Source: Pachysolen tannophilus NRRL Y-2460 (taxonomy: Eukaryota). Taken from it: a stretch of 64,000 bases of DNA. The DNA is taken from positions 1-64,000 of the forward strand of contig KV454014.1 in NCBI GenBank assembly GCA_001661245.1, given 5' to 3'. Both the position numbers and the translations under genes were made by a program. Each line of letters starts with the position of its first letter. Position 1 is the stretch's first letter. The notes under the pieces were generated by a model. The model did no database searches, was not told the origin of the DNA, and worked only from the letters and a program-made list of their open reading frames with translations. Shown here piece after piece: positions 4,924 to 39,300 of the stretch.

Positions 4924-5628
4924 TGGAATGATCAAGGTACGGTATTCATTATTACTAGAATCAGAAAAGGCTCTGCGTTTACTTAAAACAGATACATCTA
5001 ACATAATGGCAAAAAAAAAAAGAGAATATAAAGATAACAAATTATTAGTATCCATTCTGTGTTTTATGAAAAATCTTACTTTACTTACAATATTCAAATA
5101 AGTGATTTTCTATATTTGTATTCGTACGGAAATTTATGAATGAAACTTCACTGTTGTTATAAAGGTTTTTAAAATTGATCTGTGAAAAGCTTTTAGCAAG
5201 TAAAGATTTATTCTCATCTTGGTCTATATTATGAACATCACTGGTTATGAAATAATTAATACCATTGGTGAAAGCAGAACTTAATGAAATATCGTTGAAA
5301 TTAAAATTTATAAAATGAAAGTTTTCACTAGTGATTTTTTGAAGAATAGCACCTGAATCTTTTGCCATTTCTAAATGATGTTGATTAGCATCATACCAAG
5401 TCAATATCTTTTCATAACTGCATTGAAGTCCCAATCTAGCACAAGCCTGACATTTAGGTTTCCCTTCTATTTTCACCGTATTAGTTAGCTTTCAAAAACT
5501 GTACTTTAAATCATTTCGAAGAAATACAAACTTACCATCACATTTTTTTTCCTCTTCTTACAAATTAAACACCCAGATCTTTTCCTAACACACTTTCTCT
5601 TGAAGCTATTCTGTTTTTGTATAGCCAT
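4924..5628 (-). pseudogene. 5' half of a Zn(II)2Cys6 transcription factor (exons 5628-5536, 5466-5089, 4997-4924), inverted relative to its 3' half
   Basis: GCLICKKRKK..CD / EGKPKCQACARLGLQCSY zinc cluster; two GTAAGT..CTAA(C/T)..TAG introns; ends at EYRTLIIP; A8 run in exon 1 shifts the frame. Confidence 0.8.
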
Positions 5629-5979
5629 TATATCTTAAGAAATAGTTGTTCCATTCCTATTATGCAATTGAAAGATAAGATAAGAAAAGTAGTAAAGAAA
5701 ATTTGAAAGTAGTGAGTAAATAGTGAGTAAATAGTGTGTTTACTAAGAGAGCTAAACAGTTTATATAATAGTGATGAGTATACCAGTTTAACTATAAGAT
5801 TTGCACAAGGTCAGTATTCTAAGATTCTAGACTGAAAAGTAAATAAGTATCGGAAGATTTCTTTTAATGCGATCATATTTACTGGACTTTCATACCCTCA
5901 AAGTAGCAATTATGACTAAAAATTAGAAGCAGCAATCTTCTTTTAATAAACCTTAAACATCAGCAGAACCTTAAAAAAA

Positions 5980-7065
5980 AATTGCTATATATCACCTGCT
6001 TTGTTTCATTCGGTAATCGCATTGGCAGCAAATGATATGGTTAGAAAGCAGCCACAACATTCAAAGTATTATTCATCGTTATCAACAAAGTATAAGAATG
6101 AGGCCATCACCATATTACACAACATTTTAGATAATGAACCGCATTTTTTATCTAGTGATTCTTCAGATTTACTAAATGAAATAATCGTGACTATATTGAT
6201 GTTATGTTCTTTAGAAATAAGTGATAAGGGAAATAAGAATTGGCTTAATCATTTGAGAGAAGGTGGTCTTATATTTGGTTCATTATCATATTCAAAAATT
6301 TTGAATTCTGGGATGTTATTATTTTCTTATCGGTATTTTACATTGCGTTATATATTATTATTAACAACTTTAAACCACGATGAATTACAAAAATTTTTAG
6401 AAGCATCACCTTGGCCCATAATATCCAATTTTTTTGATAATGATAAAGTTGATTACATGTTAGGCTGTTCCCCTAGTCTTTTAAAAATTATTTACAAGAT
6501 TACAGTTTTAAATTATAACAGGTTTTCTATGACTGAGAATGAATTTCGCCAGGAATATGCACATTTAGAAGATGAATTGACAAATTTAAATCAACAGTTG
6601 AATAATAATGATAAAAATAGTTTGGAATTAAAACTATGTGCTCAAGCCTATTATGAATCTACCAAAATTTATTTACGTTACTCATTGTTCATCTTTTCAG
6701 GAATGGAATTGGCACCATCCGATTTCGAAAAACTAATGAACACTGTTCTTTCAGTTTTAAACAGGTTAATCTCAGAAGTAAAACATTTAAGTTTATTCCC
6801 AACATGGACAATATTCATTGCAGCTTCTTGCTCCTCAAATCTTTTAAATGATGCCGTAAGATTCTCCATATTGAACAATTTTGAAGAATTAGAAAAAGTA
6901 TGGCCTCAAGCATCTAATTCTCAAATTAGAGTTGCAATAGAAACAATTTGGAAAACTTATGACTTGAATTTCGATCTTATTAACCATTACTCTTCATGTG
7001 AAGCTGGTCTTATTGACTGGAGAGATATCTTAAGTATTACAGGTTTTAAACTAGCATTAACTTGA
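5980..7065 (+). pseudogene. 3' half of the same Zn-cluster factor (Fungal_trans_2-type domain), lacking its own N-terminus
   Basis: NCYISPALFHSVIALAA..ILMLCSLEI..WLNHL..DYMLGCS..IDWRDIL; continues the minus-strand RTLIIP motif. Confidence 0.8.
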
Positions 7066-7248
7066 ACTATAAACAATTTACTAGTTTGCTCTGGCCCTTG
7101 GCTAGAACCATCTTCTAGACTCATCATCAACAGAGTACTTTTCCCCCAATAAATAGTTGTTGCATTTTTTTGCAGAATAGAAATATCTTTTTTTCTCCCT
7201 TTTTTCAATTATAACCGTGAGTTGTCCAATTTTTCTTTGATTTTATAT

Positions 7249-7286
<38 letters not shown>

Positions 7287-7356
7287 TATATATGAATAAT
7301 CTTGTGTGGTGAATTTGAATTAGAGTGAGTGGTTTGGTTGTAGATTATTTTGAATA

Positions 7357-8553
7357 ATGACTTGTCTGGAGTATGTATTGGAGAGAACTACTGATGCTAG
7401 AGTGTATCTGTGGTGTCATTTACAAAATTCATGTTCTTGGAAGTCGAATTTAACTTCTGAGCAATACGTTAAAAGGGAATCTGTTTTATCCTTGACGAAA
7501 ATTTGTAATGCCCAAAGAAATGAGAATGAATTAAAAGGTATTCATTATTGGGTTCTTAGGGATATGGGAATTGTTAAAAATGAAGGTGTTAAAAATGATG
7601 ATGAGGTTTACGATTTGACATATAATATTGTTGCTTCATCAGAGACTCTTTTCAGGGAATCATGGGTATTTCAATTTAAAGATGGAATAGTTGATAGGAA
7701 ACAAGTTTTATCACCTTGTATTGGTGGGGTCTATACACTTCCATCACAAAGAGGTAAAGGTGTTGCTTCTATTATGATTACAAAATTAAATGAAAAATTA
7801 TCTGAGATGATGGATAAAGATAGATTTATAACTTTATACTCAGAAATTGGTAATTATTATGAAAAATTTGGTTATAAAAATTTTGAAGTTGGTTTATGTC
7901 ATATTCCAATTCTTGATGAAGATTTAAATATCAATATCAATATTGATGAAAATTTTTCATTTAATTTTTTAAAAAATGGAGAATTTAAACAAATTATTGA
8001 ATTTTATAAAAAAAAATTTTTAAAACAAATTGAATCATTAGTCTTATTAGATAAAAATAGGACCAAGATTAGTTTAATTCCATCAATTGAAGTTATTGAA
8101 TGGCATCATGAAAGATCAATTTTCATCTCAAAGACCCTCTATGATGTAAAACCAGGTCATTTTGGAGTTCAAATATGTGATAATCAACAAAATTTGAAAG
8201 GATTTATAATTTGGACTCATGATTATAAAGAAAAATCATTAGTATTACTCATTATTTATGGTGAAAATTTAAATATTTTAACTGATTTAATAAAGCTTAC
8301 AATTCTTGAAGCTAAAAAGATAAATTTTGAAAAAATTATTTGTTGGGAATCTGATTTATTCAATTATAAATTAAATATAAATGGTATTGATAAAGATGAA
8401 ACCTCAAAATTTACAAAAATCATTGAAACTGATTTACATGGAAAATTACATTTAAAAAATGGCTCAATAAGTGCTGCTTTAAAATTCCATAATAATGTTA
8501 ATGATAATGGAAATTTAGATTGGGAAGGAAACGGCAAATGGGCCTGGTTTTAA
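7357..8553 (+). CDS. GNAT-family acetyltransferase (LYC1-like)
   Basis: IGGVYTLPSQRGKGVA acetyl-CoA motif; LYSEIGNYYEKFGY. Confidence 0.75.
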   Translation: MTCLEYVLERTTDARVYLWCHLQNSCSWKSNLTSEQYVKRESVLSLTKICNAQRNENELKGIHYWVLRDMGIVKNEGVKNDDEVYDLTYNIVASSETLFRESWVFQFKDGIVDRKQVLSPCIGGVYTLPSQRGKGVASIMITKLNEKLSEMMDKDRFITLYSEIGNYYEKFGYKNFEVGLCHIPILDEDLNININIDENFSFNFLKNGEFKQIIEFYKKKFLKQIESLVLLDKNRTKISLIPSIEVIEWHHERSIFISKTLYDVKPGHFGVQICDNQQNLKGFIIWTHDYKEKSLVLLIIYGENLNILTDLIKLTILEAKKINFEKIICWESDLFNYKLNINGIDKDETSKFTKIIETDLHGKLHLKNGSISAALKFHNNVNDNGNLDWEGNGKWAWF

Positions 8554-8727
8554 TTAATTTATAATATTTAAATAATTAGAAAATGTATTAGAAATTATAG
8601 AAACCAAAAAAGAAAAATTTATTTATTTATTTAATATATATATATTTTATTTTTTATTAATTATTCTTCTTCTTTTAATAATAATAATATAATAAGTTTA
8701 TCTATAGGATTATATGATATAGTAGAT

Positions 8728-9741
8728 ATGGTTATCAAAGGTCGAGGGCCGTTAAGGATCAAGGAGAAAAATCACCCAAATAGACCATCACCTACAAGTC
8801 ATATTGATAAAATAGCATCTTTAAAATCACAACCACTTAAAGATGATGCATTAAATTTATTACACGAATTAGCTAAATTGGTGGCACCAATAATGACGAA
8901 GCATAATTTTAAAGTAAAATTACTTTGTGAGATGTTCCCCAAGAGTGCTAATTTATTAGGTTTAAATATTAATAGAGGAGCAAAGATAATGATAAGGTTA
9001 CGCCATTCACATAATAAATTTCAATTTATTGCAAAATCAGAATTAATTGGTACTTTTCTTCATGAATTAACTCATAATATCTATGGATTACATAATGCCC
9101 AGTTTTATTCATTTTTGGATAAATTGAAAACAGAATTTGAAGATATGATGTGTAAATATGGATTTGATATTAATGGTATGGTAACTTTTGATGATATGTT
9201 TGGAAATAATACGAGACTTAATAATAAAATTTCTAACATTACAGGGAATTCTAAAAGTAATAATAATTTTTTCAAAGAAGTTCATAGACTTGGATCTGGA
9301 GATAATTCTAATTCGATATCCACCATCAGGGGGAAATCAATGAGAGAGTTGATTGCAGATGCTACTGATAGGCGGTTAAAGGATAATAAAACTTGTCATG
9401 AAGCCACATTTTCAGATGGTTTAAATGATAATAAATTTATGGAAGATTTGCAAAAAAAAGGAGAAATACCCAGAGATCAAGATTTAGATATAATCGTGAT
9501 TGAAGATGAAGATGAAGACAAACAAAGAGATAATGAAACTAATAATCGGAACAGCAACGGCAACAAAAACAGGAAAAGGAAAATGGAACCACCTCAAGAT
9601 GATGAAGTGATAATTTTGGATTCAAGCAATGATACAACAATTAATACTAATTTGAATAAAAGCCAAAATACAAACACAAAACGGAAACACACCAAAAAGA
9701 AACTGGAAGTAGATGAAATAGTTCTTATAGATCTAACCTAG
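8728..9741 (+). CDS. WSS1: WLM-domain DNA-protein crosslink metalloprotease
   Basis: LLGLNINRG, HELTHNIYGLH zinc motif, C-terminal SIM-like IVLIDLT. Confidence 0.9.
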   Translation: MVIKGRGPLRIKEKNHPNRPSPTSHIDKIASLKSQPLKDDALNLLHELAKLVAPIMTKHNFKVKLLCEMFPKSANLLGLNINRGAKIMIRLRHSHNKFQFIAKSELIGTFLHELTHNIYGLHNAQFYSFLDKLKTEFEDMMCKYGFDINGMVTFDDMFGNNTRLNNKISNITGNSKSNNNFFKEVHRLGSGDNSNSISTIRGKSMRELIADATDRRLKDNKTCHEATFSDGLNDNKFMEDLQKKGEIPRDQDLDIIVIEDEDEDKQRDNETNNRNSNGNKNRKRKMEPPQDDEVIILDSSNDTTINTNLNKSQNTNTKRKHTKKKLEVDEIVLIDLT

Positions 9742-9970
9742 TCTAGATAGAATATAGAGATACTAATGACAACTTTTTTTTTTTTTTTTTTGGTTACGTA
9801 GATAAATCTTTCTGAAATCGCAGCGATCTCTTAATCTCTTTTAATTTCTTGATTTTTTTAATTTTCTATTTTTTCATTTATTTTTATTTTAAATGAAAAA
9901 TAATAGAAAGGTACCAGAAGTTGATAACCTATACGTTAGATACTTTAATCATTTTTGAGGTATTGTTCCA

Positions 9971-12900
9971 ATGGATCAGCAACCCAATAGCTCACCTAAC
10001 TTAAGAAGGCCCAGTGGTAATAATTTTGCTAGGTTTGCCTTTAATATTTATGGAGGAGGTGGTAGTAATTCGAGTAATAATGTTTCGTCGGTATCACAAC
10101 CTCTGAGTTTTTCAAGTTATTCAAGTCAAAGAAATAATAGTAATAATAGTAATAATAGTAATGGTAATCAGAATTATAGTATATCTGGTGGTGATGTTGT
10201 TGAAAATAAACTCAAGTTTGCATCCAATAATGAGATCTTGTGTGTTTCTTTATCAAACTATGATAATAACGTTGTTGCAATTGGAGGCCAAAGATTATTA
10301 CAAGTATTGAGAATTAATTCTTTAACAAATGAGATAAATATAGAAAAGGATTTGAACCCATCACTTGCATTGAGTAGAAGTAGTAAAATTGGATATATTT
10401 CAGATCTAAAATTTGGTCATCATCAATTAAACAACTATATAGCAGCTGCTACATCATCTGGGAATATTTGTTTATATAATCTCATAAAATCAGATCGCAT
10501 TTTAACCACATTGAACGATCATTCAAGAACAGTAAATACCATCGATTTTAATCCCAATCAACAATCACAATATGCTTCATGGTCATTAATCTCAGGTTCC
10601 CAGGATGGAACTATAAAGATATGGGATTTAAGAACAAATTCTAATCGCGCAGCAGTTACCATTACTGGGACTGCTGATCCAGTCCGTTGCGTTCAATTCT
10701 CACCACATAACTCTACAAGTATAGCAGGTATCTTTGATTCCGGTGTAATCAAAAAATATGATTTGAGAAATCCAAATCAAATTGATAGGAAGCTAAATGC
10801 TCACACAGGTCCAGGTTTGACCCTCCAATGGCATCCAGAATTGGATTATATAGCTAGTGGAGGCAGAGATAAACAATTACAAGTTTGGAATATGGCTCCT
10901 TCCAATAATGAACAAAGGACTCCTGATTTTGTCATTAATACAGCGGGAGCAATTTCAAAAGTTAGCTGGTCTCCAATTTTCACAAGTGGGAATATTTTTA
11001 ATTCTCAAATTGCAACATGTTTTTATAACGATGATCCATGTATTCAAGTATGGTCCTTAAACAGAAAATATATTCCAAGTTATAATATAGAAAGTCATAG
11101 TAATCTCGTCACAGGTATATGTTGGAAAGACAATAATACTATATTGAGTGGCTCTAAAGATAAAACATTAGTACAGCATGATCTAACCAAGATTGCAAGA
11201 CGTCTTGATAATTTACATACTGTCAGTATGGATTTTTCCTATCATGATTTGGTGTTTGTAAATCAGAATAGTTCAGATTACGAAAAATCATGGATGAATA
11301 CTCAAGATGCAGAGACAACTCGTTCTCCTCCTATTCATCAGACGTTCTCAAGTGATGCAAATTTAGTATCATCATCCGCACAGCTGTTACTGTCACTAAA
11401 CATCAACTCAACACCATCTTCATTTTTATCCTCCTCATCTGGTCAACATCCATACAATTCCACTTCCCCCAATATGAACCTGCAAGAAAGACCATCATTA
11501 CTAAGAAATGCTACACATAGACCAGTGATAAAACGAAATTTATCAAATAGACAAAATACTTTAGTAAATCAATTTTTGCATTCTTCTCCTTTTCTTTGTC
11601 CTGTTGAGATACCTACTAGTGACAATGACGCGATATTTGAATTTTTGTCTTCACATTATTTAATATCTATCCCTGATGGAATGAACTTAATTTCTGTATG
11701 TCAATACAATTCAAGTGTTGCAGCTACTGGTGGTCATTACCGTGATTCTCAAACATGGAAAATTATTAGTTCAAGTATTGAATTTGCAGAAAACTCTGGA
11801 GATATTCAATATGGTTCTGCTATTGGTGAAACTAGACTGGGTCAAATGAAGGAGGAACATGAAGGTGAGAATAAAGACACTTTGAAAAATTTTGATTCTA
11901 CACGATCCAATTCAGAGATAGATGTTGGATCATTAGGTTCACACTCTACAAATTACTTTGGAGGAGCATCGTTACCGCGAGATAATTTTGCTTCTCAGGC
12001 AAATTTGATTATGAGTCGATCTCTCAGTGTAGAAGAGTACAAACGTGAGCCTGTATCGAAATTAACAAAACTGAGCATGAATTCAGAGACAAATGAAAAT
12101 GCAATTGTTGATGATGAAGATGATGAAAGTGTGAAAGACATTAATTCTGGGACAAAACAATCGAAAAATCATCATACTGATAGTAACGGGAATCATACAG
12201 TTGTTCCAAATGATACCAAAAAATTAGGAGCAACAGAAAAAAATCATGAAGTTAATAATATTCATTCTTCCCAGAAACCGATTCTGATAAATTTAAAACT
12301 GAAAAGATCTTCATTTAATCATTACCCTCATGAAAAAATTTCTTCATCACTTTCAGGTTCTGTCCAAGCACTTTCTGATGATGATGCAAATCTGTATAAT
12401 TCTTCATTGGGTAAATCACCTTTATCTTTGGTATCTACAGTTTCATCTTCAAATAGACCTAATTTTGGTGGAATTGCAACTAATGGTAATAATAACAGTA
12501 GTAATACATGGAAAGATATTACGAAAAATGGTCTTACAACATTACCTGAAAGAGTAAGATTAAATTCAAGGGTTAGTTCTAAAAGTGCTAGAAGTACATT
12601 AACTAAGATCTTAAAAGAAGACCAATCTAAATTAAATAGGAAAGATGGTGATATGAATAATGGGGAAGCAGATGGAGAAGAAGCAGAGGATTTTGATGAT
12701 GGTTATCCGATTGTACCATGGTCTCCGCATGTTTTAATTTCCAAAGCTGCTAAGTATGGTGCACATCAAGGAGATATTATCATGTGTGCGACATTGGCAT
12801 TACTTTTCGCTAATCATTATCAAAGTAGATCGATTTCTAAATATGAGGCTATGGATTGGATTTATTCTTATCATGAGATCTTACTACGCAAGGGATTATT

Positions 12901-13252: not shown

Positions 13253-13280
13253 AAAAAAATTTTTCTAAATTTTTTATATT

Positions 13281-14357: not shown

Positions 14358-15192
14358 TTACAAAACTAAAATTTAAAAACAAATAACAACTTAAGATAAA
14401 AAAAAAAAAAAAAATAATAATAAATTTTTTCTTTCTTTCTCTCACTTCTCTTCTATTCTTATATTACAAAATTTTCACTTTTCACTAGTTTATAAATTAT
14501 CCATATCTATCTAAATCACTATCTATGAAGTCTCTTTCTGACATCTGTGATGCGCTATGTGAAAATTTTAGCTCTGCATGAAAAAAAAAAAGAAATGTGA
14601 AAAATGTGAAAAAAAAAAAGAAAAGAAAAAAATTGGTGTCGTGTGCGTTTTGACCCAATTCCATAAAAGGAAACTTTTTTTTGAAAAACTTTCTCTTTTC
14701 TTTTTTTTGGCTTGAAATTTTTCAGGTAGTTCATATACACACTAAACTTTCCAAAATGGAAACTGTTTCCGCCCCCCCCCCCCCCCACGTAAACTCCAGT
14801 CGTGTATTTACAGCTCAAATTGATGGTTCTGGAATTGTTTCCCCATTAAATCCAGTCGTGTATTCTACACTCAAATTCTCGCTTTTTTTTTTGGTTTTTT
14901 CTTTCCATTTGGCATAACACGCACTAAAACGTTTTGATATTTGTTACACTCATCCAATGACACTAATTTGAATTTTTCCTTCAAAATAAAACGGAAAAAC
15001 GAAAAAAGCGAAAAAGGCGAAAAAAAAAAAAAAAAAAAGTTACCAAGAAGAACAAAGAGAGAGAGAAAGAAAGAGAATTAATTGTTTTTATAGTGATTTA
15101 GTTGAAATATATAAAATAAACTTTTAAAAAAAAATTTTTTAATCTATAATATTCAATTGAAGAGATATATATTAGTTATTATAATTATTATC

Positions 15193-15917
15193 ATGTTTAG
15201 ACAATCATTAAGGACTGTTTCAAGATCGGCCAGATTGGTTCAGAGAAGAACTTATGCAGAAGCTGTTTCTAACCCAGATATTTTAAAAGTTTCATTGGCT
15301 TTACCACATGAAGTATGTAATTATTTAATTTTAATTTAAATAAAATCAAATTCAATAAAGTTGTTTGGTTTTTAATTTTATTTTGCCATTGAGGAATTGA
15401 AAAATTGGTGAGTTTATACTAACAGTTTTTTTTTTTTTTTTTTTTTGTCTCTTGTTGTTTAGACATTGGTTAATGCTCAAGAAGTGTAAGTATAAATTTT
15501 ACCATATATATGTATATTCAATTGTGAAATATATTGACTAACAAAAACTTTTTTTTCTTTTTTCTTTCTTTTACCAGAACTCAAGTTAATATTCCAGCTG
15601 TTTCCGGTGAAATGGGTATCTTGGCTAATCACGTTCCAGTAGTTGAACAATTAAAGCCAGGTATTGTTGAAATCATTGAATCTTCGGGTACTACAAAACA
15701 ATTTTTTGTCAATGGTGGTTTTGCTACAGTTCAACCAGATAGTAAATTGAATATTACTGCAATTGAAGCTTTTACTCCAGATTCTTTCTCACCAGAAGCT
15801 ATTAAATCACAATTGACTGAAGCACAAAAAAATTTATCTTCTGCAGATGAAGCTGTTGCTGCAGAAGCTGCAATTGAAGTTGAGGTCTTGGAAGCCTTGG
15901 CTGCTGTTGCTAAATAG
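15193..15917 (+). CDS. ATP16: F1-ATP synthase delta subunit; exons 15193-15312, 15463-15485, 15578-15917
   Basis: Mitochondrial presequence, TQVNIPAVSGEMGILANHVP; GTATGT/GTAAGT donors with (T/G)ACTAAC branch points restore the frame. Confidence 0.93.
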
Positions 15918-16348: not shown

Positions 16349-16677
16349 ATGGAAAGTAATCTCAGAAATTCATTCAATAACATATTCACTTCTTCAGGTA
16401 ACTTATTGGAATATTTAACCCAATTAAGATCTAAGAATTTGATTGTACCCAATAATAAACTTAATAGAAATAATAATCCAACATATAATAATTTAGTTAA
16501 TATTTTGGATTCTAATATAAATAATTATAATAAAGTATTAGATGAATTTGTGATAGAACTTAGTGATTCAGAGATAATTTTGAAAAATTTAAAAGAAAAA
16601 TTAAAGAATGATAAATTAAACATCAACGGGAATAACGTTTTACAAAATAATAAAAATATCAATAATAATACTACTAC

Positions 16678-16714
<37 letters not shown>

Positions 16715-17329
16715 GATAATAATGTTGGCTCGATGATAAATCCTCTTACTGGGAATACAGAAAGCCAAGACGTTAACCAGCTGTCTCTTGATATTAATAT
16801 GGATGAAGAAAGTTATTTGAATCAATTTTTACAACAGGATAATAATGATTCAATAACTTTAGGAAATAACATGGATGATCTGATATCTAGTTTTAGTAAT
16901 GCTAATGGTAATACTGACGAAAATGACAATTTTGGAGATACGAATTTCTCCAATGGTAATAACAAACAAGGTAGTAGCAGTACAGCTGATATTGCGTCAA
17001 TAGATATCAATAAAAACCCAGCTGATATTTTATATGGTAATTTATCAAACATATCCAACTTATCCAATAATGGTACTAATGATTCTGACTCTCACCAAAC
17101 GAATAATAATAATAATAATAATAACAGTGATGTTGCAACAAACGTAAATGGAAATAAAAATAAGTATGTGACTGACGATAATATAAATCTTGATGAGTTA
17201 GATGAATTAATTGCAAGCACAAATAATGGAAGTGATGATATGATCAATTACGATATTAATGGTGTCGAAATAGATGATAATAATATCTTTGATGAGTTGA
17301 ACTACTTATTAGGCACTCAGGACAATTAA
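16349..17329 (+). CDS. MED2: Mediator tail subunit Med2 / Tlo-like protein with Asn-rich tail
   Basis: N-terminal LRNSFNNIFTSSGNLLE..YNKVLDEFVIELSDSE resembles the Med2/Tlo domain; acidic Asn-rich C-terminus. Confidence 0.65.
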
Positions 17330-18499: not shown

Positions 18500-18530
18500 A
18501 ATAAATAAATAAATAAATGAATAAATAAAA

Positions 18531-18573
<43 letters not shown>

Positions 18574-18574
18574 A
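18500..18574. repeat. (AAAT)n microsatellite
   Basis: Tandem AATA units downstream of the 18620 gene. Confidence 0.8.
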
Positions 18575-20077: not shown

Positions 20078-21029
20078 TTATTTTTTCAATTCATTTTGTA
20101 ATTTTTGTGCAAAAACTTTATCATCAATATCTCTCCAATATGGTAATCTTCTTTCCAAATTTTGAGAAGATAATTCTGGATAATTTTCATCAATTGCTTT
20201 AATTAAAGCATCATAAAAGATTTTATAACCATCACCAGTATAATGAACACCATCAACTAATAAAGATTCTGCATCTATTTTATTTTTAATACTATAATCT
20301 TCAAATAACAGATGTAAATCTAAAAATGGTAAATTATATTCAGCACTTAATTTTTTCAATTCTTTAGTATATCTTACAGTATTTTCTGTAGTTCTTATCC
20401 AACCCATAGCAACTTGATCCATTCTATCTGGTTCCCATTTAGTTGGATCATGATATGATGGACCAACAATAATTAATTTGATATTACGTTTAAGTGATTC
20501 TTCAATCATAAATTTAAGATTATCTGCAAATTCATCAAGTGGAACTCTTTGTGGACCACCATTAACACAATCATTTGTACCAAAAAAAATTGTCATAATC
20601 TTAATTTTTTGAGTTTCAGGTAAATTATCATGATCATTTTGAAAAATTAATGGTAAAATTAACCTTGCTTGTCTTGTAGAATAACCAGCAAAACCTCTAC
20701 GCAAAATATCCAATTTTCTTGAATAATCTATTAATAAAGCATAAAAAATACAATAAATGAAATTACAGAAAAGCAACAAAGAAAAAAAACAAATTAGTAT
20801 CAATATTCAATATATTTTTATCTTTAAAAAAGAAAAGAAAACTAATATCATTTAATTCATAAAAATAACTTCACAACTTACCATTAGCTAAAGCTGCACC
20901 TAAACTAAAATGTAGGGCTTCTGTATTTTCACTTGCATTAGGACGTAATCTCAAATACGGTCTTTGATCAAAACAAAATTCAGTAATTGAATCACCAAAT
21001 AAAAGAAACCTATTAAATTGTAAAGACAT
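20078..21029 (-). CDS. IAH1: Isoamyl-acetate esterase (SGNH); exons 21029-20882, 20727-20078
   Basis: FLLFGDSIT in exon 1; RRGFAGYST, FFGTND, DGVHY; GTAAGT..TACTAAT..TAG intron. Confidence 0.88.
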
Positions 21030-21499: not shown

Positions 21500-22073
21500 T
21501 TAATAGCCAACACTGATCAAGTAGTCAGCCAATTTCTCAACTACTGTTGTAGCATCTCCTGGCTGAACACCTGAGGGATAATGAGCAACCAAAATAGTTT
21601 GTGTTGATTTAACAATCACAACACCTTCGGCATCCTAAATAGAAGAGATGTTAGTAAAAAAAAGAGAAGATTTTTTTTTTTTTTTTTGATTTTTTAAACT
21701 TACGTGTTTACCATAAATTGATCTTTCATCAGCTCTTAATAAAAAATATTTTTGTTGTTGAACATGTAAACCATTAGCTTGCAAATTCAGAGGATTTGAA
21801 AAACCTTTAGTAATTTCCAGAATCTCATTTGGTTGTAACTGGAAATTATTCGAACTTGCCCATACGGAATCTCCAGCAGCTGAGTAAATTGTCGCTTTAT
21901 CAATTTTGCCTGTTGCTACCAAATTATCGGTATACGCTGTTGACCAAGAAAAAAAAAAAATTGATTGAATGTTAATACTTTGCTTGAACCAAGATAAATA
22001 TATTAAAAAAAACAAAAAAAATAGACAATTAAAACAATTATGAAAAATTAAATAACTAACCTTGCCACGACAT
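21500..22073 (-). CDS. PFY1: Profilin; exons 22073-22061, 21936-21704, 21634-21500
   Basis: [44 protein letters not shown]. Confidence 0.93.
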
Positions 22074-22355
22074 TTCTCTATCTAGATTATAATACTATAA
22101 TTTAATTGATGAGAATAACTAAACTAAACAAGAAAAATGATATTTAAATATCATTAAATTGGTTTGGTTGGTACCTGCACCTATTTTGTATACGCTCTTC
22201 CAACTGGAAACTTTGACCATATTTACCCGGAAAGATTCTTCTACAAAACAAAAACAATTGATACGTTTCTCACTACTGTGTGGGATTACAATTACAATAC
22301 TAACAACAACAACAACAATAACAACAATATTCTACACGATCCTATGTATGTGAGG

Positions 22356-27704: not shown

Positions 27705-28343
27705 CACCAATCACCAATTACCAATCACTATCACCTCCCGTATCCCAAAATATCTGGAAACTACCAATTAACCAATTTCAACCACACAATCATGAAGTTC
27801 TTCATTAACAAAATGTTAACATTTCTTCTTATCTATACTTTTGCGTTGCTCTTCCGCCAGCCAAAACCACTAGAGCCAAAACCACTGCCGCCAGAATAAA
27901 CCCGGCAGCTGGTGGCGGGCAGGGCAGGGCGGGCCCAAGCTTGGCGGGGCCCAAGCCTGAAAATCTTTGCCTAAATTTTTGCCTAAATGTTTTCCCTTGA
28001 ATTTCCCGCCAAAGTTTTTGACGGGACCCTCCGCCTGATTTTTTGTCCGCCTCTTCTCACTTTTCTGCCATTTTTTCTGTTTTTTTTCTGTTTTTGCCCG
28101 TGTCAGGAGCGCAAGCTCTTTTTGGAGATTTCGAAATTTCACCAAGTTGTATTGTGTGTCAAGCTAATGGACGGCCCAATAGCAGTTTAAAATTTGAATC
28201 AACGAGGTCAAGTAGGTGTTGATTTAGAGAGGAAATAAAAGAAAAAAAAAAACTATCTCTTGAAGAGGTTTATTGTTTGAATTAATTGATTGAGTTGTTT
28301 TAAAAAAATATTTGGATAATAAGTAGGGATAGAGATAAAGAGA

Positions 28344-30329
28344 ATGTCTTCACAAGTTTTAAAACATTTCCAAAATTTAAAAATGTTTTCAATATCACAA
28401 GCAACTTTATCATCATGGTGTTTGAATGAGACTCAGTTACGAAAGAATTTTAATGAAAATCCAAATTTATCAATGTATAAGAAAAAACCGGTATTAAAAT
28501 ATCCTGAGGTGACTAAACTAGTTGAAAGTTATATTGATGAAAATGTGGCTAAAGGAGTTATAATTACAGATCAGTTGATTAAAGATTGTTTCAATTATTA
28601 TCTTGGAATATATGGATACGCAAAGGAAAGTGTATTGTTAAGTAGCGGGATGTTGCATTCTTTTAAAAAGAGAAATTCAATTAAAAAAGGCTTGAAAATA
28701 GATAAAAATCTTCTGGAACAGTTGCTGACACTGGAACCAACTCCAGTACCGGTTCCAGTACCGGCTCCAGTGTCAACTACTACTTCAGAAACTACACCAG
28801 TGTCTGCACCAGTGTCTGAACCAGTACCAGTTTCTGTACCGGTTTCAGTACCGGCACCAGTGCCGCCTCAGCTGCTGCTGCTGCCTCCTCAGCTGCAACT
28901 GTTGCTGGTTCTGACACCATCTGAATCTCCATCAGACCAACTGCAGATTCCTCTACAGGTTTCAACTGCATCCACAGCTCATATTCCTCCATTCCCACAC
29001 CCAACACATATACAGAGTATCTTGGAGAATTCAGCATTGGGTTTCAATACTAGGTTGATTCATTCCGATGATAGTAATTCAAATTTCTTCAATAATTACG
29101 GTAATAGAACTGTGGATCCAGTAACAACAGAGTTTAATGCCTTAGCCCACTCTGGGTTGATGGCTTCAGACAATTTACTGTTGAATGATGATAACAGCAA
29201 CAACAAACAGCAACAACAGCAACAACAGCAGCAGCAGCAACGACACCAGCGACAGCAATCGCGCCAAAATACAGGTAATTCGAATACTCCTATAAACACT
29301 AATATCATCTTAGACAATTTTTCATATTCTAGAACTAGTCATCCAAATTCTGAAAAAGTGGAAAAAATCTTGGAGAATATCACCAATGGATATGTGACGT
29401 TATATAATTCAGGAACATCTGCTATAATGGGACTTTTAACTTATTTGAACCCCAACAAAATTTGTATTAATAATAATGGTGGGTATCAGGGGACACATCA
29501 AGTTATTAAACTATTATCAAAATTAACTCATTTAGAAAAACTTTCACTAAATGAATATAATAAGCTAAGGAAAGGTGATGTTATGTTGATTGAATCACCA
29601 ATGAACCCTGAGGGTTATTGTGTTGATATCGAAAAATACTCTAAACTAGCTCATTCTAAAAATGCTCTCTTACTTGTGGATTCGACTTTAGCACCTCCTC
29701 CTTTACAAGATCCTTTTAAACATGGAGCTGATTATATCATCCATTCAGCAACTAAATATTTTAGTGGCCACTCTGATTTACTTGCAGGTTTTATAGTATC
29801 TAGTACAAAAGATACAAAGATAAATTTATTGGAAGAGAGATTTTCTTTAGGAACTAATATTGCTAATTTCGATTCATTCTTATTATTAAGATCATTAAGA
29901 ACTTTTAAGATGAGAATTTTACAACAATCTTCAAACACTTTCCAATTGATCAAATTCTTGATGAAAAATATTTCAAAGTACCCTATTATCACTAAAATTC
30001 ACCATTCTTCTTTACAATTAGATCCTTTTGTATTATTACAGTTGAACGGTTATTATAATCCAATATTTGCTATAGAATTTAAGTCCATGGAGATTGCAGA
30101 ATTATTAATTAATAGATTTAGTTTTTTGAATTGTAAAAATAATTTAACTGGTGGTGGAGTTGAAACCACGGTGGAATTGACTTATAAAAATCCAAATTTT
30201 GTTAATTTGGATTTTGATAATATCAATTCTTCTGTAGGTGCTAATCTTTTAAGATTCAGTGTGGGATGTGAAGATCACGAAGATTTAATCAATGATTTTG
30301 ATCAAGCTTTAAGTAGCTTTAATACGTAA
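28344..30329 (+). CDS. CENP-B/Tc5-type HTH fused to Cys/Met-metabolism PLP-dependent enzyme
   Basis: N-terminal ISQATLSSW..YPEV..SSGMLHSFKKR; C-terminal YSRTSHPN, VDSTLAPP, HSATKYFSGHSD, LLRFSVGCED. Confidence 0.8.
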   Translation: MSSQVLKHFQNLKMFSISQATLSSWCLNETQLRKNFNENPNLSMYKKKPVLKYPEVTKLVESYIDENVAKGVIITDQLIKDCFNYYLGIYGYAKESVLLSSGMLHSFKKRNSIKKGLKIDKNLLEQLLTLEPTPVPVPVPAPVSTTTSETTPVSAPVSEPVPVSVPVSVPAPVPPQLLLLPPQLQLLLVLTPSESPSDQLQIPLQVSTASTAHIPPFPHPTHIQSILENSALGFNTRLIHSDDSNSNFFNNYGNRTVDPVTTEFNALAHSGLMASDNLLLNDDNSNNKQQQQQQQQQQQRHQRQQSRQNTGNSNTPINTNIILDNFSYSRTSHPNSEKVEKILENITNGYVTLYNSGTSAIMGLLTYLNPNKICINNNGGYQGTHQVIKLLSKLTHLEKLSLNEYNKLRKGDVMLIESPMNPEGYCVDIEKYSKLAHSKNALLLVDSTLAPPPLQDPFKHGADYIIHSATKYFSGHSDLLAGFIVSSTKDTKINLLEERFSLGTNIANFDSFLLLRSLRTFKMRILQQSSNTFQLIKFLMKNISKYPIITKIHHSSLQLDPFVLLQLNGYYNPIFAIEFKSMEIAELLINRFSFLNCKNNLTGGGVETTVELTYKNPNFVNLDFDNINSSVGANLLRFSVGCEDHEDLINDFDQALSSFNT

Positions 30330-30452
30330 ATAACTGTTTTAAGATAATAAAATAAAAGATAAAAAAAACAAAAAACAAACAAACAAAAAACCCTATAAGA
30401 AACCACTAAATCTTTTTTCCCTAATTAATTCAAAAGTTACTATTCATTAATG

Positions 30453-31562: not shown

Positions 31563-31834
31563 CTTACTAATAATAACTATAAATCTAATTCAATCAATTT
31601 TAACAATATCAATAGCAATGAATAAATATTATTTAAATTAAACCATATATTATATATATATATATATATATATAAAAGTAGTGATTTAACTACTCTTGCT
31701 AAATAATTAATCTAAATCATATATTAATATATCATAAAATAACTATAAAAAAAAACCCAGTTTCTACTTTAATTCTATTCTATAAACTTGAAAACGATTA
31801 TATCAAAGATTATTATTTTTAAATTTATTAATCA

Positions 31835-33364
31835 TCAAATGTAAAATTGTGGTTTACCAGAAGTTTTAGTTTGAGAATAAGAAGTTTGATGATCAACTCT
31901 TGGTGCTTCACGTAAAAATGAGTTAAATTCTCTATTACTAACAATACTAACAACACTACTTGCAGCACTGACATGTTCACTTTTCAAGATCAAATTATCT
32001 ATATTTGCAATTTCTGGTTCTTCACTTAAACAACCATTCATTCTAGCTTCATATTCCAGTGCTGCATGTCTTGCCTTTTCCATATATGTTTGATGTGAAG
32101 TATGATTATGATTTCTTTTAGTAGCATAATGAGCAAATGTTGGAGATTCAATAATATCTTGATTATTTCTTTTTTGTTGTAATTTTGTTAATGATTTATT
32201 TAACATGTTTAAAGATATTGAAGATGAAGGATTCATATTTGATTTTTTAAAATAATCACCTATATTTTTAATACTTTGTTCTGGTGATAAATTTCTTGGT
32301 GTATTTATAGGAGATTGTCTCGGAGAATAACCTAATTTATGTAAAGAATAATTTGATTTAAAACTTTGTAATAAATCAACATGACTTGTTGATTTTTCAA
32401 TTAAGAATTTATGATTTACCAATTCATCAATAGTTATTCTTTGATTTTGATTTAAATTAAAACATTTAGAAATAAAATCTTTAGCATTATCACTAATATT
32501 TTCCCAATATTCTTTTGGTTCAAAATAATAATCACCTGTCATTATAGCTTCTCTTGTTTCATCATCAGTTTCACAATCAAATGGCATATAACCACATAGT
32601 ACAAAATATGTTAATACTCCTAATGACCATATATCTACTGGGTAAGAATAACCAGTAATTTTTTCTTCAAGATAAATATCAATTTGTTCTTTTGATAAAG
32701 ATGAAGGAATGGGATATTTATGAATTAAAATTTCTGGTGCAATATGACTTAAAGTTCCACAAATTAAATTTAATTTATCCTTTTGTTTATTATAAAAAGT
32801 TGCTAATCCAAAATCAGTAATTAAAATTTCAGATTTTATTGAAGTTGTCTTAAATACTAAATTTTCAGATTTTAAATCTCTATGAATAATATTATGATGA
32901 TGTAAAAATTGAACTGCATCACATAATGATTTTATAATATTTATAGCATCTTGTTCAAAATAAGAACCATTTGATGAAATTTTATCAAATAAATCACCAC
33001 CTGTTGCTAAATCTGTAACTAAATATAATTCATCATCAGTTTCGAAAAAATCATTTAATGATAAAATATTTTTATGATTAAATTTTGAAATTTTTTTCAA
33101 TATTGTAATCTCATTTTGAATTAATGATTCTCTACCATACATCAAATTTTTTTTAATAACCTTAATAGCATAATGTAACCCAGAATCTTTATGAACTCCT
33201 TCTTTCACAACAGAATAAGTTCCTGATCCTAAAGTTTCAGCCAATACAACATATTTACATTTAAAATGTATTCTTTCATCAATATTAACTTTCCTAATAC
33301 TCTCTACTGAGGGCCATATATCACCCTGCTCATAATGGTAATCTTTCCAAACATTACTTGACAT
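31835..33364 (-). CDS. CaMK-group Ser/Thr kinase
   Basis: LGSGTYSVVK, HRDLKSEN, DFGLA, APE, DIWSLGV. Confidence 0.9.
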   Translation of the reverse strand: MSSNVWKDYHYEQGDIWPSVESIRKVNIDERIHFKCKYVVLAETLGSGTYSVVKEGVHKDSGLHYAIKVIKKNLMYGRESLIQNEITILKKISKFNHKNILSLNDFFETDDELYLVTDLATGGDLFDKISSNGSYFEQDAINIIKSLCDAVQFLHHHNIIHRDLKSENLVFKTTSIKSEILITDFGLATFYNKQKDKLNLICGTLSHIAPEILIHKYPIPSSLSKEQIDIYLEEKITGYSYPVDIWSLGVLTYFVLCGYMPFDCETDDETREAIMTGDYYFEPKEYWENISDNAKDFISKCFNLNQNQRITIDELVNHKFLIEKSTSHVDLLQSFKSNYSLHKLGYSPRQSPINTPRNLSPEQSIKNIGDYFKKSNMNPSSSISLNMLNKSLTKLQQKRNNQDIIESPTFAHYATKRNHNHTSHQTYMEKARHAALEYEARMNGCLSEEPEIANIDNLILKSEHVSAASSVVSIVSNREFNSFLREAPRVDHQTSYSQTKTSGKPQFYI

Positions 33365-34109
33365 ATCATTTATCTCTGCCCACTCATTCGCCCAACAAAA
33401 AAGATTAAAAGAAAAACAAAACTAAACTCTATTTCTATTCTATTTGAATAACTATTAATCAAGTTAATTTGGTTGATTTAATATTATCATGTTATTTTTT
33501 AAGAAAACAGAAGATCTCTTTCTATTTCTCTCGTATAAAAGTATTAAGAGCACGCACTTTTAAGCCTCAGCCGCGCACACTAATGCACATAAGCGCATTG
33601 GAGCAGCGCACACCAATATTTAGAAACAGCGCATACATTAGTGCACTTTAGCGCACAAAAACAGCGCGCATTAAAATATTTAAAAAGCAACATATCAGTG
33701 CACCATATTTACCTTAAAAAGCGTTATGCATATGTGTACCACAAAATATAAAAAAAAAATAAAGCGGATCGCACTAATCGCTAATAATGTACCGCAACTG
33801 TTTATTACACATGCGCAACACAATTGCGCTGTTTACTTGCGCACTACTTTTTTTTTTTTTTCATTTTTCATTTTCATTTTTTTTTATGTGACTTCGTTCG
33901 AATTCCTTTTTGACTTTGTTCTTTGCTATATAATTTTGAAAATTCACATTCATTTTTTAGGTAAAAAGACTTTATAATTTTAATTATTTAAAAATTAATC
34001 AAGTTATCGAGGAAGAATTGAAACTTTTCTTTTAGCAATTTTTTTTTTAGCAATTTTTGATTTTTTTTTGCTTTGGCAGTCAATTTTGTAAACTTATTGT
34101 GATAATAAC

Positions 34110-35525
34110 ATGGATTCGAAAGTAATTGGAATTTTAGGTGGTGGTCAATTAGGACGTATGATAGTGGAAGCTGCTAATAGGTTAAATATCAAGACCATAG
34201 TGTTGGATGCACCAAATTCACCGGCAAAGCAGATCAATGCATTAGATCCTCATGTTAATGGTTCTTTTACAGACCCAAAATGTATTAAGGAATTAGCTTC
34301 AAGATGTGATTTATTAACAGTTGAAATTGAACATGTTGATGCTGATTATTTAATGGAATTACAACTGCAAACTAATATTGAAATTTATCCATTACCTGAA
34401 ACTATTAAATTGATTCAGGATAAATATTTACAAAAATTACATTTATTAGAACATGATATTCAAGTTGTTGAATCTAAATCTGTTGAATCTACAAAAGAAT
34501 CTTTATTAACTATTGGAAAATCATTTGGGTATCCATTCATGTTAAAATCTAGAACTTTGGCTTATGATGGTAGAGGTAATTATGTTGTTAAATCTGAAGC
34601 AGGTATTGACGATGCTTTGAAAACGTTATCAAACCGTCCATTATATGTTGAAAAATGGGCTCCATTTGTTAAAGAATTGGCAGTTATGGTTGTTAGATCA
34701 GTTGATGGTAATGTTCAATCATACCCTGTAGTTGAAACTATTCATGAAAACAACATTTGTCATTTATGTTATTGTCCAGCTCGTGTTAATTATACTGTAC
34801 AAGAAAAAGCTCAACTATTGGCTAGAAATGCAATTAAAACTTTTAATGGTGCAGGTATATTTGGTGTAGAAATGTTTTTATTGGCAAATGGTGAATTGTT
34901 GATTAATGAAATTGCACCAAGACCACATAATTCAGGTCATTATACAATTGATGCTTGTAATATTTCACAATTTGAAGCTCATATTAGATCTATAACAAAT
35001 TTACCAATGCCAAAAGGTTTTACTTCATTAACTACAACATCAACAAATTCAATTATGTTAAACGTTCTTGGTGATTATATAACACCTGATGCAGAATTGG
35101 AAAAATGTCGTAAAGCTCTTGAAACTCCACATGCTTCAGTTTATTTATATGGTAAAACTACAAGACCTGGAAGAAAAATGGGTCATATCAACATTGTAAG
35201 TTCATCAATGGAAGATTGTCAACGTAGATTGGATTATATAATGGGTCATACTAATGAAATCCCAGCAAGCTTGGATTTCAATAAAGATAATCAAATTGCT
35301 GGAACTTCAATAAAACCATTAGTTGGTGTCATAATGGGTTCAGATTCAGATTTACCTGTAATGTCAAAAGGTTGTGAAATCTTGAAAAAATTTAATGTCC
35401 CATTCGAAGTTACAATCGTTTCAGCCCATAGAACTCCTCATAGAATGTCCAAATACGCTATAGAATCAACAAGAAGAGGACTCAAATGTATTATTGCAGG
35501 AGCAGGTGGTGCAGCACATTTACCA
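34110..35525 (+). CDS. ADE2: ADE2 5' part (ATP-grasp plus first half of AIR-carboxylase domain), truncated after codon 472
   Basis: [52 protein letters not shown], then read-through into non-coding sequence to a stop at 35627. Confidence 0.93.
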
Positions 35526-35964
35526 TCTTCTTCTTCTACTACTACTACTATTACTACTTTTCCTTTTTCTTTTCCTATTTCCCTTGATTTGATTTCCTTC
35601 TATTTTAAAAACAAAACAAAACAATAAAAAAAAAAAAAAAAAAAAAAATACAACTCAATTAAAACCTAAATCTTATCAATGAACTATTAATCAACCTCAA
35701 CCAAAAGATCAATTAATTCATCAATATTTCATTAAATTATATAAACTAAATCAATTCAATAATTTATAGTAACAAGTTTCAATTTATGGTTTTATTCACT
35801 TTTGATTTCTAAGGTAGAAATTATTGGTTTGATTTACACGACACACTTTCTCCTTTACAAATTACTAAGAGATTGAGTGTAATGATGATGATGAAGAGGT
35901 TATTGAAGTTAATTGGTTTATTGAGTAAATATATATATATAGAGAGAGAAAGAGATTATATAGG

Positions 35965-36261
35965 TTATTGTTTCAAGTAGTCTTCGTAGCCAATTGCTTC
36001 TAATCTCTGTGCTTTTGTCAACACTTCTTCTTCCATGTTGTTCATATAAGTTTCCATTTCAATTAACCATTTAGAATCGTGAGCACCTAGTATTTTAATT
36101 GCTAATAGAGCAGCATTTGTTGCATTATTTATGGCAACCGTGGCAACTGGAACACCTCTTGGCATCTGGACGATACTGTGTAAAGAATCTACTCCATCTA
36201 AAGTTGAGCCTTTAACAGGGACACCTATGACGGGTAATGGAGTCATAGCAGCAACCATACC
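35965..36261 (-). CDS. ADE2: ADE2 3' part (rest of AIR-carboxylase domain), on the opposite strand
   Basis: [46 protein letters not shown] is the exact continuation of HLP. Confidence 0.93.
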
Positions 36262-36349
36262 AAGTAAAAGAAAGAAAGAAAGAAAGAAAGGATCAAGATA
36301 CTAATTTTGGTTATTCTCTTTTTTATTTCTTTTTGATTTGGAAATAAAG
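36262..36349 (+). other. Orphan spliceosomal intron lacking its 5' GT, flanked by 10-bp inverted repeats (36252-36261 / 36349-36358)
   Basis: Starts AAGTAAAAG; TACTAAT at ~36299-36305; pyrimidine tract; first downstream AG at 36348-36349, followed by GTATGGTTG. Confidence 0.65.
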
Positions 36350-36351
36350 GT

Positions 36352-39300
36352 ATGGTTGAACCAGAAAATAGTGGTAGTAACGATTTTGATGGAGACGTTG
36401 AAATGCTGTCCAATGATCAAGTTAACGAAGAATCTGATAAGTTGGTAGATTTACCGGCGGATAGTGTGGAAGTAAAGCCGCTGCACGGCGGATCTGATGT
36501 GGCGGTAGAAGGGGACGCAAAGAGAATGAGGGAAAGTCTTGTTGGTGTTAGCGCTGATAATGAGCTAGAAGTTGTGAAAAGCAATGGGACAGAACAATTA
36601 CAGGAATTGCAAGAATTGCAAGATTCACAGGAATTACAAGAATTACAGGAATCACAAGAATCACAATTTTTACAAAATTTACAAAATTCACAAGAAATTA
36701 TTCAAGAGAATGATTTACAGTCTCAAATTATTCAATTGTTACCTGAAAATCCTAAAATCTATAAAACCTCAGATAGAATTTTGGATGATTTAATAAACGA
36801 TATTTCAATGTTTAAAATGGGGTTTAATAGTGGTATATTAGGATTGCCTACAATAATGTATGCATCGAATTTATCATATTATTTAAGTGAAAAACAATAT
36901 GCATCTGATTATAAATTATTAATTTTAAATAATCAATTGGCCTATGCTCCAAGTCAATTTATGCCGGAAGATGGATATACAATAATAAGAGGTTTAATAG
37001 TGGAGAATCGCGATAATTATATTCCTAATACATTGGTATCAAACGAATTATACCATGTTAAAATTATAATAAAAGAAGATGAAGAAATTTTTAAAAAAAA
37101 TCCAACAAGTATTAAACATACAAAAAAATGTTACAAGCATGGGTTTTTCAAAATTGAGGATGATGAATTGACCCCACAAAATAAAATCAAATTGATCACT
37201 AATTATAGAAAAGTGCTAGAAAATTCAAATTTAGAAAAAAAAGATTTACTGTTTGTTGAAAAATCAATACCAAACGTTATTGATTCAGCAAATTTTATAT
37301 GTAAAAGTTGCAAGTTAATCATAAGGTTGGAATTGTCTACAGCAGAATTTGATAAAGAAGCAATAAATAATTTTCAATTAGATGAAATACAACTAAGATT
37401 TAGCCGTTATATCTCACTGTTGAACGGTAAAGGAGAAGAAGATATTGCAGTTAATGAAAAAATTCCATCTATAGAACAATGTTTTACAACAGTGGGGAAA
37501 GTTGTAAAAGGACCTTTACAACGTTTGCCTAATGACGAAATTAAAAGTATTAGAGCAGATAATAAATCTGTTAATATACATTTAGGTATCGAGTTTATGA
37601 TAAATTATTTGAATTTTACAAACAATGAAGAAATGTCAGAACTATTCCCTCCAAACATGGAATTGCCATTAGTAAAGGAAAGTTATATAAGAAAATATTT
37701 TGAATCAATATATTATTCAAAAATGAGTAACCTAACTTACAGTGGAGAAAATATTATTTTGAAACATTTAAATGAAGCAGTACATTTTGGAGGAAATGCA
37801 TCATTGGATATAGAGGATCGCAAATTGGACCATTCCAAAGGTTACATAACGCTTTCCTGTAAAAATAGGGATTATTCAGATGAAAACATTAAGGAAATTT
37901 ATAAGATCTTAGTTACAATCGACCCTGCAAATGAAATGAAATATTTTGATTGCTTAAAAGAGGTTGCAAACTATAGAAGAACAACCAATATAATGACCTA
38001 CATTGCACAACTATCATCAGAGGGAAAAATTGGATTTGATGAATTATGTGAATATTATAAAACTTTACAAATTCCTTTAGATGCCAACGTGAATGATATT
38101 TCTGATGAAATTTTGATTGATCAATATAAGCTATTAGTTTCAAATACAACATCAAAATCATTGAAGGATTCATTAAGATCAAGTTTTTCAAAATTAGGAA
38201 AAATTAGACATAGTCTGTTTATTCAAGATTATTTGAATTCTGAGCCTTTAGATGATTTGGAACAGGCTTATAATAATCTTGATATAAGTGAATCTGTTGA
38301 TGATGATGTTGTTATCACTGCATATGGAATTAAGGTTGACGATTTCCCAACAGATACCAATTTGTACGATCGTTCATTATTGTCAATTGCTATTAATAGA
38401 AAGTCGTTCATGTTATTAGATTATATTGAAAATAATTTAGGCCATTTGAATTACTTCTTACCAATTGATTATAGTCAAGCTTTTTCGTATATTGGATGTG
38501 ATGAGTTGGCAAATGAATTTCAAATTATTACTATTTTCCAAGAAAGATTACTGAAAGATCATTCTTGTGATGTGAGATTGCTAAGAGCATACTTGAGAGA
38601 AATTGGACAAACTAGAAATTCTCAATTAATTCTCAACTTTCTAAAAACTGGAATTATTGATCAAAGATACTTGCCAGTGGAAAATACTCCAGTTGGTTTG
38701 AATAATATTGGTAATACATGCTATTTGAATTCTTTATTGCAATATTATTTTGTTATAGAACCTTTAAGATCTGAAATTTTAAAATTTAATGAGGTCTTGA
38801 CGAAAGAACTGTTTGAGTCAAATGAATTATTTTCTAGAAGAAGAATTGGTGGAAGAACTGTAGGATATAAAGAAACAGAAAGATCATATCAATTCATATA
38901 CCAACTACGAGATTTGTTTGAAGAATTAATCAAAAGCAATGAGAGATGTGTTTCTCCAAAAAAGGAATTGGCATATTTGGCATTTTCACCAAGTACGGAC
39001 GAGGTTGAATTTGATGTTTCCCAATTAGATGACGAAGATTTTGATGAACAAGGACTCACAGATAAAGATAAACAGCTAGTACTCAGATCAAACTCTACAG
39101 TCATTGCTAATTCGACTTCTTCACTAGAAAGTAGTCAGCATTCCACTAATACTTTATCTGTCGAAAATGAAAAGTCAATGGATATAGATTCCAAGGAGTC
39201 TGACACTGAGGCCACCCTTTTCGAAAATGAGACTGTTTTGGTTTCAAGTCCGCAGAAAAGAAGATTATCATCGGAATCTAGATCCGGAGGTAGTACTAAT

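Follow-up and report, generated by a model that had tools for sequence, protein, structure and literature searches.

How two genes near one end of a yeast contig came to be written partly on one strand and partly on the other is the question raised by the first 64,000 nucleotides of contig KV454014.1 in GCA_001661245.1, an assembly of Pachysolen tannophilus NRRL Y-2460. This whole stretch is referred to below as the window. The genes are ADE2 and a gene for a putative Zn2Cys6 transcription factor, and in both cases one part of the gene lies in a short segment that reads back to front with respect to the other part. The original prediction, drawn from 4924 to 36358, had described two inversions here and taken them as signs of a genome-wide process of gene scrambling. 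Both inversions are present in the sequence, with the coordinates corrected to 4924-5979 (inversion 1) and 35526-36261 (inversion 2); the former end coordinate lies past the junction 36261|36262. The reading that we find most likely, and on the whole probable, is that both segments were placed the wrong way round by error when this strain's draft assembly was built.

The evidence is clearest for ADE2. The [Candida] railenensis ADE2 protein (P0003, 567 residues) was used as the reference for both pieces of the gene (the coordinates and contents of all features discussed here are collected in Table 1). The plus-strand piece aligns to its residues 1-472 with 73% identity and ends with ..AAHLP, the codon CCA at 35523-35525 corresponding to residue 472; beyond this point the reading is junk. 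The remaining residues 473-567 (GMVAAM.. onward) are found on the minus strand, running from 36261 down to 35968 and closed by a stop at 35965-35967, and this 3' piece is 79% identical to residues 471-567 of the reference. Neither piece contains a stop or a frameshift within it, and the two join at 472|473 of P0003 with 0 codons lost. The cut falls in the middle of the PurE-like domain, at position 78 of the 148 positions of the Pfam AIRC profile, of which the plus-strand piece matches positions 2-78 and the minus-strand piece positions 71-147. A scripted reverse-complement of 35526-36261 yields a single open reading frame (ORF) of 570 aa that aligns with P0003 from end to end (428 of the 567 residues identical, with 1 and 4 gap columns). 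Only after this in-silico flip is the full set of ADE2 domains (pre-ATP-grasp, ATP-grasp, PurK_C and the complete AIRC) present on one chain.

In the transcription-factor gene it is the 5' part that lies in the flipped segment. Both of its introns are canonical (GTAAGT, CTAACTAAT/TACTAAT, TAG), and the spliced reading of exons 2 and 3, which ends in ..LFEYYVSVLSKRRAFSDSSNNEYRTLIIP, aligns to the proteins P0123 and P0122. The ends of inversion 1 are set by P0122, its closest homologue. The minus-strand part ends with ..NNEYRTLIIP, whose last residue is residue 83 of P0122 and ends at 4924, and the plus-strand part begins with NCYISPALF.. at 5980 and aligns to residues 84-439; the pieces therefore meet at residues 83|84, with 0 codons missing. 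The cysteine cluster of this gene is less clean. The homologues P0123 and P0124 read CxxCKKRKKxCDE and carry PF00172; in the window it can be read only if one passes over intron 1 and a frameshift in an A8 run, where the frame of the ATG and that of ..KKCD(G) are offset by one base, and Pfam Zn_clus gives no score on the separate exons. Either the A8 frameshift is a further true lesion of the gene, or the consensus is wrong at this homopolymer. A one-base deficit of this sort, beside inversion 1, is the kind of consensus error that drafts carry, though it could also be a true mutation.

Table 1. Positions and contents of the two inverted segments, of the gene parts that they divide, and of the adjoining features (positions are those of the window).
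Feature	Coordinates	Strand	Content	Basis or remark
Inversion 1, flipped segment	4924..5979 (1056 bp)		Transcription factor 5' flank (351 bp), exons 1-2, part of exon 3	
Transcription factor, 5' part	4924..5628	-	Exon 1 5628-5536, intron 1 5535-5467, exon 2 5466-5089, intron 2 5088-4998, exon 3 part 4997-4924	
A8 run	5543..5550	-	Within transcription factor exon 1	One base short for the conserved Cys6 reading (frameshift)
Transcription factor, 3' part	5980..7065	+	Fungal_trans_2 domain	Pfam PF11951, E 5e-33
ADE2, 5' part	34110..35525	+	472 codons; pre-ATP-grasp, ATP-grasp, PurK_C, first half of AIRC (PurE-like)	Pfam
Inversion 2, flipped segment	35526..36261 (736 bp)		ADE2 3' coding part and 439-bp 3' flank	Ends fixed by P0003 472|473
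Pyrimidine-rich low-complexity tract	35526..35600		Inside the flipped segment of inversion 2	Direct reading
ADE2, 3' part	35965..36261	-	98 codons and stop; second half of AIRC	Pfam, E 4.8e-30
Ubiquitin-hydrolase gene	36352..40566	+	ORF	Pfam UCH/RPT

Turning both segments back restores intact, undecayed genes, with the A8 frameshift in exon 1 of the transcription factor as the exception. The description of the flips as lossless events of 0.7-1.1 kb, each with one break in intergenic DNA, is borne out by the measured lengths and by the absence of any lost codon. Since the genes are undecayed and no codon is missing, each event is either extremely recent or not biological.

All four junctions (4923|4924, 5979|5980, 35525|35526 and 36261|36262) are blunt, with neither duplicated nor missing bases. 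Each event has its second break between genes: that of inversion 1 is found 490 bp past the stop of an MFS gene, and the right junction of inversion 2 is placed 90 bp before the ATG (36352) of the ubiquitin-hydrolase gene. Both intergenic breaks touch low-complexity DNA, namely an A/T run at 5973-5979 in inversion 1 and a long purine/pyrimidine tract in inversion 2, which the right junction cuts (35526-35600 / 36262-36290) and within which 35557-35576 and 36263-36282 form a repeat pair (I23). Judged from the sequence, flipping the segment back would join the two halves of this tract, upstream of the ubiquitin-hydrolase gene, into one continuous run rich in purines. A run of 23 A is also seen within the same segment, at 35626-35648.

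No inverted repeat abutting both junctions was found among the 25 longest pairs of each region (of 161 and 107 pairs, respectively). Near the junctions the longest arms (21-39 nt, 71-77% identity) lie in stretches of A/T or of purines, and they do not border the segment on both sides. Arm complementarity, measured over 6 to 20 nt, is at chance level for inversion 1, and the best value for inversion 2 is 6/9 (p = 0.025, among 16 tests). The only microhomology is a single complementary base pair, T4924 with A5979, at the ends of inversion 1. This lack of repeat arms speaks against a homologous flip/flop of the mating-type (MAT) kind, against invertase-type switches, and against template switching between short repeats.

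The search for an enzyme gave a similar picture. No recombinase or transposase (integrase, resolvase, DDE) was detected by Pfam in the 38 main ORFs and in 101 of the 108 leftover ORFs of the window, the other 7 being frames of the telomere repeat that were dropped from the set. The original prediction was right that no transposon or recombinase gene is visible, the nearest thing to one being a sub-threshold match to the Tc5 helix-turn-helix (HTH). The same ORFs contain no third gene piece on the opposite strand within the 64 kb. Thus no natural inversion mechanism is marked here, the segments being without end repeats, recombinase, transposase or scar.

One feature is shared by the two coding breaks: both lie at a codon boundary (phase 0) after a CCA codon for proline. 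The chance of such a shared phase and preceding trinucleotide is approximately (1/9) x 0.026 = 0.003, as calculated post hoc. The position of the CCA is uncertain by 1 nt in both events, in inversion 1 because T4924 and A5979 are complementary, and in inversion 2 in that a segment wider by one base on each side restores CCT, which also codes for proline. The claim that the breaks come right after CCA is therefore ambiguous by 1 nt. When the four ancestral break sites were compared, as had been proposed, two or three of them showed CCA, and no other motif was common to them. Inspection of the four breaks by eye for Cas9-type cut sites and restriction sites gave no consistent site.

The flips are also found in the public record, where three deposited gene models (P0001, P0121 and P0142) follow the flipped layout and match the window as it is. 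P0001 (505 aa; NCBI, UniRef and nr) consists of the 5' part of ADE2 and a 33-aa junk tail leading to the stop that ends the ORF at 35627. P0121 (361 aa; NCBI and MetaClust) begins with Asn exactly at 5980 and equals the translation of 5980-7065. P0142 (PACTADRAFT_2832, 88 aa), from the same sequence of 1,446,495 bases, represents the flipped 3' piece of ADE2; it treats the codons of 9 conserved residues (VDSLHSIVQ) as an 'intron' of 27 bases, which looks like an artefact of modelling. Codon 86 of ADE2 (34365-34367), the sole CTG in the 5' piece, appears as Ala in P0001, so the public record was translated with the CUG-Ala code. The scarless, in-silico look of the flips might suggest that they were planted or edited into the window after deposit. 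The three models, all in public databases and all matching the window, were flipped already at deposition, so that an edit of this kind is excluded and carries practically no weight with us. Of the assembly or manipulation artifact that had been offered as one hypothesis, manipulation falls with this result, while an assembly origin is favoured by indirect evidence.

A colinear version of ADE2 was looked for in the same collections. Of 7424 matches, the best 120 listed include no further ADE2 from this organism. With the 5' part as the query, proteins of 259-826 aa include no 100%-identical colinear ADE2 and no junction-spanning fragment, and with the 3' part, proteins of 53-172 aa include no identical colinear or junction-spanning match, lengths of 173-258 aa being outside both ranges. 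The contigs of a protein collection were tried as a means of telling a junk-tailed from a colinear ADE2, and this approach was rejected as uninformative because its control failed: the intact AAH1 and SUI2 were each found on 1 contig only, and exact look-ups succeeded in 2 of 10 cases (at least 3 of the 8 misses arose because the ORFs hold CTG codons, given as Ala in the public models). A metagenome scan with the 30 bases left of the ADE2 break reached 10 loci, all of them unrelated low-GC genes of the purE type whose match to the window is limited to 36-48 bases and which are all colinear onward (GGNATG..); these have no bearing on the ADE2 of this strain. No description of the flips was found in the available excerpts of the literature on Pachysolen tannophilus ADE2, assembly, inversion or misassembly.

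Two further lines of evidence concern the living strain and its reads. Yeast nitrogen base without amino acids is not known to contain adenine, hence growth on it needs ADE2. A passage in PMC3610204 reports that CBS4044 was grown in a defined medium made up with this base, and CBS 4044 and NRRL Y-2460 are one strain according to a reference title in PMC4937558. This reported growth contradicts a broken ADE2 and supports an error of assembly.

As for the reads, 5 of the 5 read sets that hold 34600-37200 contain the same share, 0.96, of 266 sampled 31-mers; the sets come from two studies, of 2010-11 and of 2023, and none of the 31-mers of this region is repeated in the window. Because the shares are equal, the two studies agree on the status of the junctions. 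Had the flips been present in both, it would follow that the collection strain itself is ade2-, at odds with its growth in defined medium. If nothing but the two junctions were missing, 60 of the 2571 words (2.3%), or about 6 of those sampled, would be absent and the share would be 0.977. A share of 0.96 with real junctions needs at least 2 or 3 other assembly-only differences within 2.6 kb, and with junctions that are not real it needs 1 or 2 further differences. The sequencing-run search returned no RNA read set for the locus.

According to the explanation by assembly error, the 736-bp and 1056-bp pieces would have been built into the assembly back to front, whereas in the living strain ADE2 would be colinear and functional and the transcription-factor gene likewise colinear. 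We infer that the four junctions have no support in the strain's reads; an assembler or a finishing step may have made them. The public assembly is scaffold-level, with a contig N50 in the 10^4 bin, a scaffold N50 of 1.69 Mb and approximately 2% N (as given in a part of PMC13232491), and links of wrong orientation, for example from mate-pair libraries with paired-end contamination, are a hazard described for short contigs in a passage of bioRxiv 10.1101/025650.

Several points weigh against this explanation. There is no N or gap at the junctions, where a mis-oriented scaffold contig normally leaves gaps or overlap scars. The CCA coincidence in phase 0 (about 0.003, post hoc) is accounted for neither by an assembly error nor by any other reading. 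The growth evidence refers to a culture kept under the CBS number, not necessarily to the DNA preparation that was sequenced. The share of 31-mers is coarse: the probability that at least 10 of the 266 words are lost through the junctions only is 0.096, and the 0.96 share may have other causes. A further difference is in fact needed whether the junctions are real or not, for example at the A23 run. These counter-points, that is, the blunt and gapless junctions, the coarse share, the CCA coincidence, and junction status being itself deduced, keep our confidence at the level of a probable explanation and no higher.

The main rival is that the flips are real and very recent, two-break inversions closed by blunt end-joining and fixed either in the clone that was sequenced or in the strain of the collection, so that ADE2 and the subtelomeric transcription factor would be inactivated. 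The deposited sequence says so, and three public gene models follow it; the junctions are blunt and free of homology, as precise end-joining can give, and no gap or N marks a contig boundary. The frameshift in the transcription factor, at a locus within 5-36 kb of the telomere, also means that this gene could be a true subtelomeric pseudogene. We nevertheless judge real inversions to be unlikely. The growth reported for the strain in defined medium is at variance with a broken ADE2, and two lossless sub-gene events within 32 kb amount to an implausible load of mutations. The same 0.96 share in the 2010-11 and 2023 sets indicates that the flips are not private to one clone, and the extra assembly-only differences that this share then needs would have to fall within 2.6 kb, most of which is intact coding sequence. 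A variant in which both orientations exist in the culture, as a sub-population or through a reversible flip, with the flipped form reported by the assembler, would agree with the losslessness of both events, and on-cue inversion of DNA does occur in this species, at the MAT locus (a passage in PMC6692504). The MAT flip, however, uses inverted repeats of 2 kb and the segments here have no repeat arms; no recombinase was found by Pfam in the ORFs of the window, and nothing shows two orientations. This variant is accordingly less probable still, and we would call it distinctly improbable.

Should the flips be real after all, the process behind them might be a repeat-independent and scarless one that turns segments of about 1 kb, cuts at or beside CCA/TGG, and perhaps serves as a reversible switch of ADE2 and of the subtelomeric regulator; we regard this as very improbable. 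The genome-wide form put forward in the original prediction, a programmed or reversible scrambling system acting in trans by site-specific inversion at a CCA site, is barely credible. It could draw on the fact that both coding breaks lie at the boundary of a CCA proline codon, with the post hoc chance stated above. On the other side, the four ancestral breaks share no motif other than the CCA seen in two or three cases, this CCA is ambiguous in position by 1 nt, and neither paired inverted-repeat sites, nor a recombinase, nor a third event in about 40 genes of the 64 kb was found. The genes are undecayed, and no use of breaking ADE2 is evident.

Local error of the reference assembly is, in conclusion, the most probable outcome, useful to curators and to users of ADE2 and of low scientific surprise. 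If the flips are an artefact, the value of the result is curatorial: the assembly of this strain serves as a reference for the CUG-to-alanine genetic code and would carry local errors of orientation, with ADE2, a standard marker gene, broken in it. At least three public proteins would be false or partial, namely the 505-aa junk-tailed ADE2, the 88-aa ADE2 fragment and the 361-aa headless transcription factor, and counts of gene loss, marker design and proteome searches would inherit the errors. If the flips are real, they would represent an unusual, repeat-free and precise inversion process in a yeast that already inverts DNA at its mating-type locus.

The surroundings of the two loci are ordinary. 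At positions 1-387 the 9-base unit ACACCACTC is repeated in tandem, with 42.6 copies and 95% matches, and towards 390 the array degenerates. This repeat looks like a telomere, and the window would therefore be the extreme end of the 1.45-Mb sequence, with both inverted loci telomere-proximal, 5-36 kb from the repeat. The G+C content is approximately 29%, and there is no N in the 64,000 bases. The genes form an ordinary budding-yeast set, several of them with short introns of the GTAAGT...TACTAAT...AG type, so that the bacterial framing of the original prediction (sporulation, colonies) does not apply. Its count of about 33 genes is also corrected: there are about 40 genes in the window and about 20 between inversion 1 and inversion 2.

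Some other features of the window deserve mention. ATP16 (ATP synthase delta subunit, 15190-15917), a GDSL lipase (20078-21029), profilin (21500-22081) and the sigma subunit of an AP complex (56106-56615) each have a short 5' exon followed by an intron, and such intron-split exons could pass for broken genes in a list of ORFs. These four were considered as split genes and rejected, since they show ordinary introns on one strand. In the ORF at 28344-30329 (661 aa), residues 319-656 form a Cys/Met-metabolism pyridoxal-phosphate enzyme domain; the N-terminal extension of 318 aa matches only the Tc5-transposase HTH, below threshold (20.0 vs 22.2 bits). A tract of (AAT)26 at 16646-16723 gives a poly-Asn run in a Med2-like gene, and a (TA)37 microsatellite is located in intergenic DNA at 54766-54839. 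A GC-richer palindrome of about 75 bases lies in a gene-poor stretch at 55383-55459. Several miRNA-hairpin models match it on both strands, the best at 31.6 bits against a gathering score of 86, and it is probably a mere hairpin-forming palindrome; the Rfam scan of the window gave no family at gathering score.

Comparison with known systems places the two flips as follows. Kilobase-scale inversions without long repeats occur in yeast evolution, and those that became fixed have, as a rule, whole genes flipped and still working. The blunt junctions without homology expected of two-break end-joining are found at both inversions; the difference is that two genes are cut here within their strings of codons and show no later decay. 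The bacterial switches of the Hin/Gin/Fim type and the shufflons depend on a pair of inverted sites and on a recombinase close by. They resemble the present events in that about 1 kb is inverted without loss and the junctions are exact, whereas neither the paired sites nor the recombinase was found in the window. Inversion by template switching between short inverted repeats is likewise exact and free of sequence loss, but it needs short arms abutting the segment, which are at chance level for inversion 1 and reach 6/9 for inversion 2. The flip/flop at the MAT locus of Pachysolen tannophilus, described in a passage of PMC6692504 as an 8-kb region between the 2-kb inverted repeats, takes place in the same organism and is an inversion of DNA in place, the one at MAT being reversible. 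It differs in needing long inverted repeats and homologous recombination; the segments here are without arms, ten times smaller, and cut coding sequence. Mis-oriented pieces in draft assemblies (a passage of bioRxiv 10.1101/025650) differ from the present case in that no run of N or overlap scar is seen at the junctions here. The likeness lies in the following: 0.7-1.1 kb is reversed in place with the flanks untouched, nothing is lost, genes that are evidently needed are broken, and the assembly is a scaffold assembly of short contigs.

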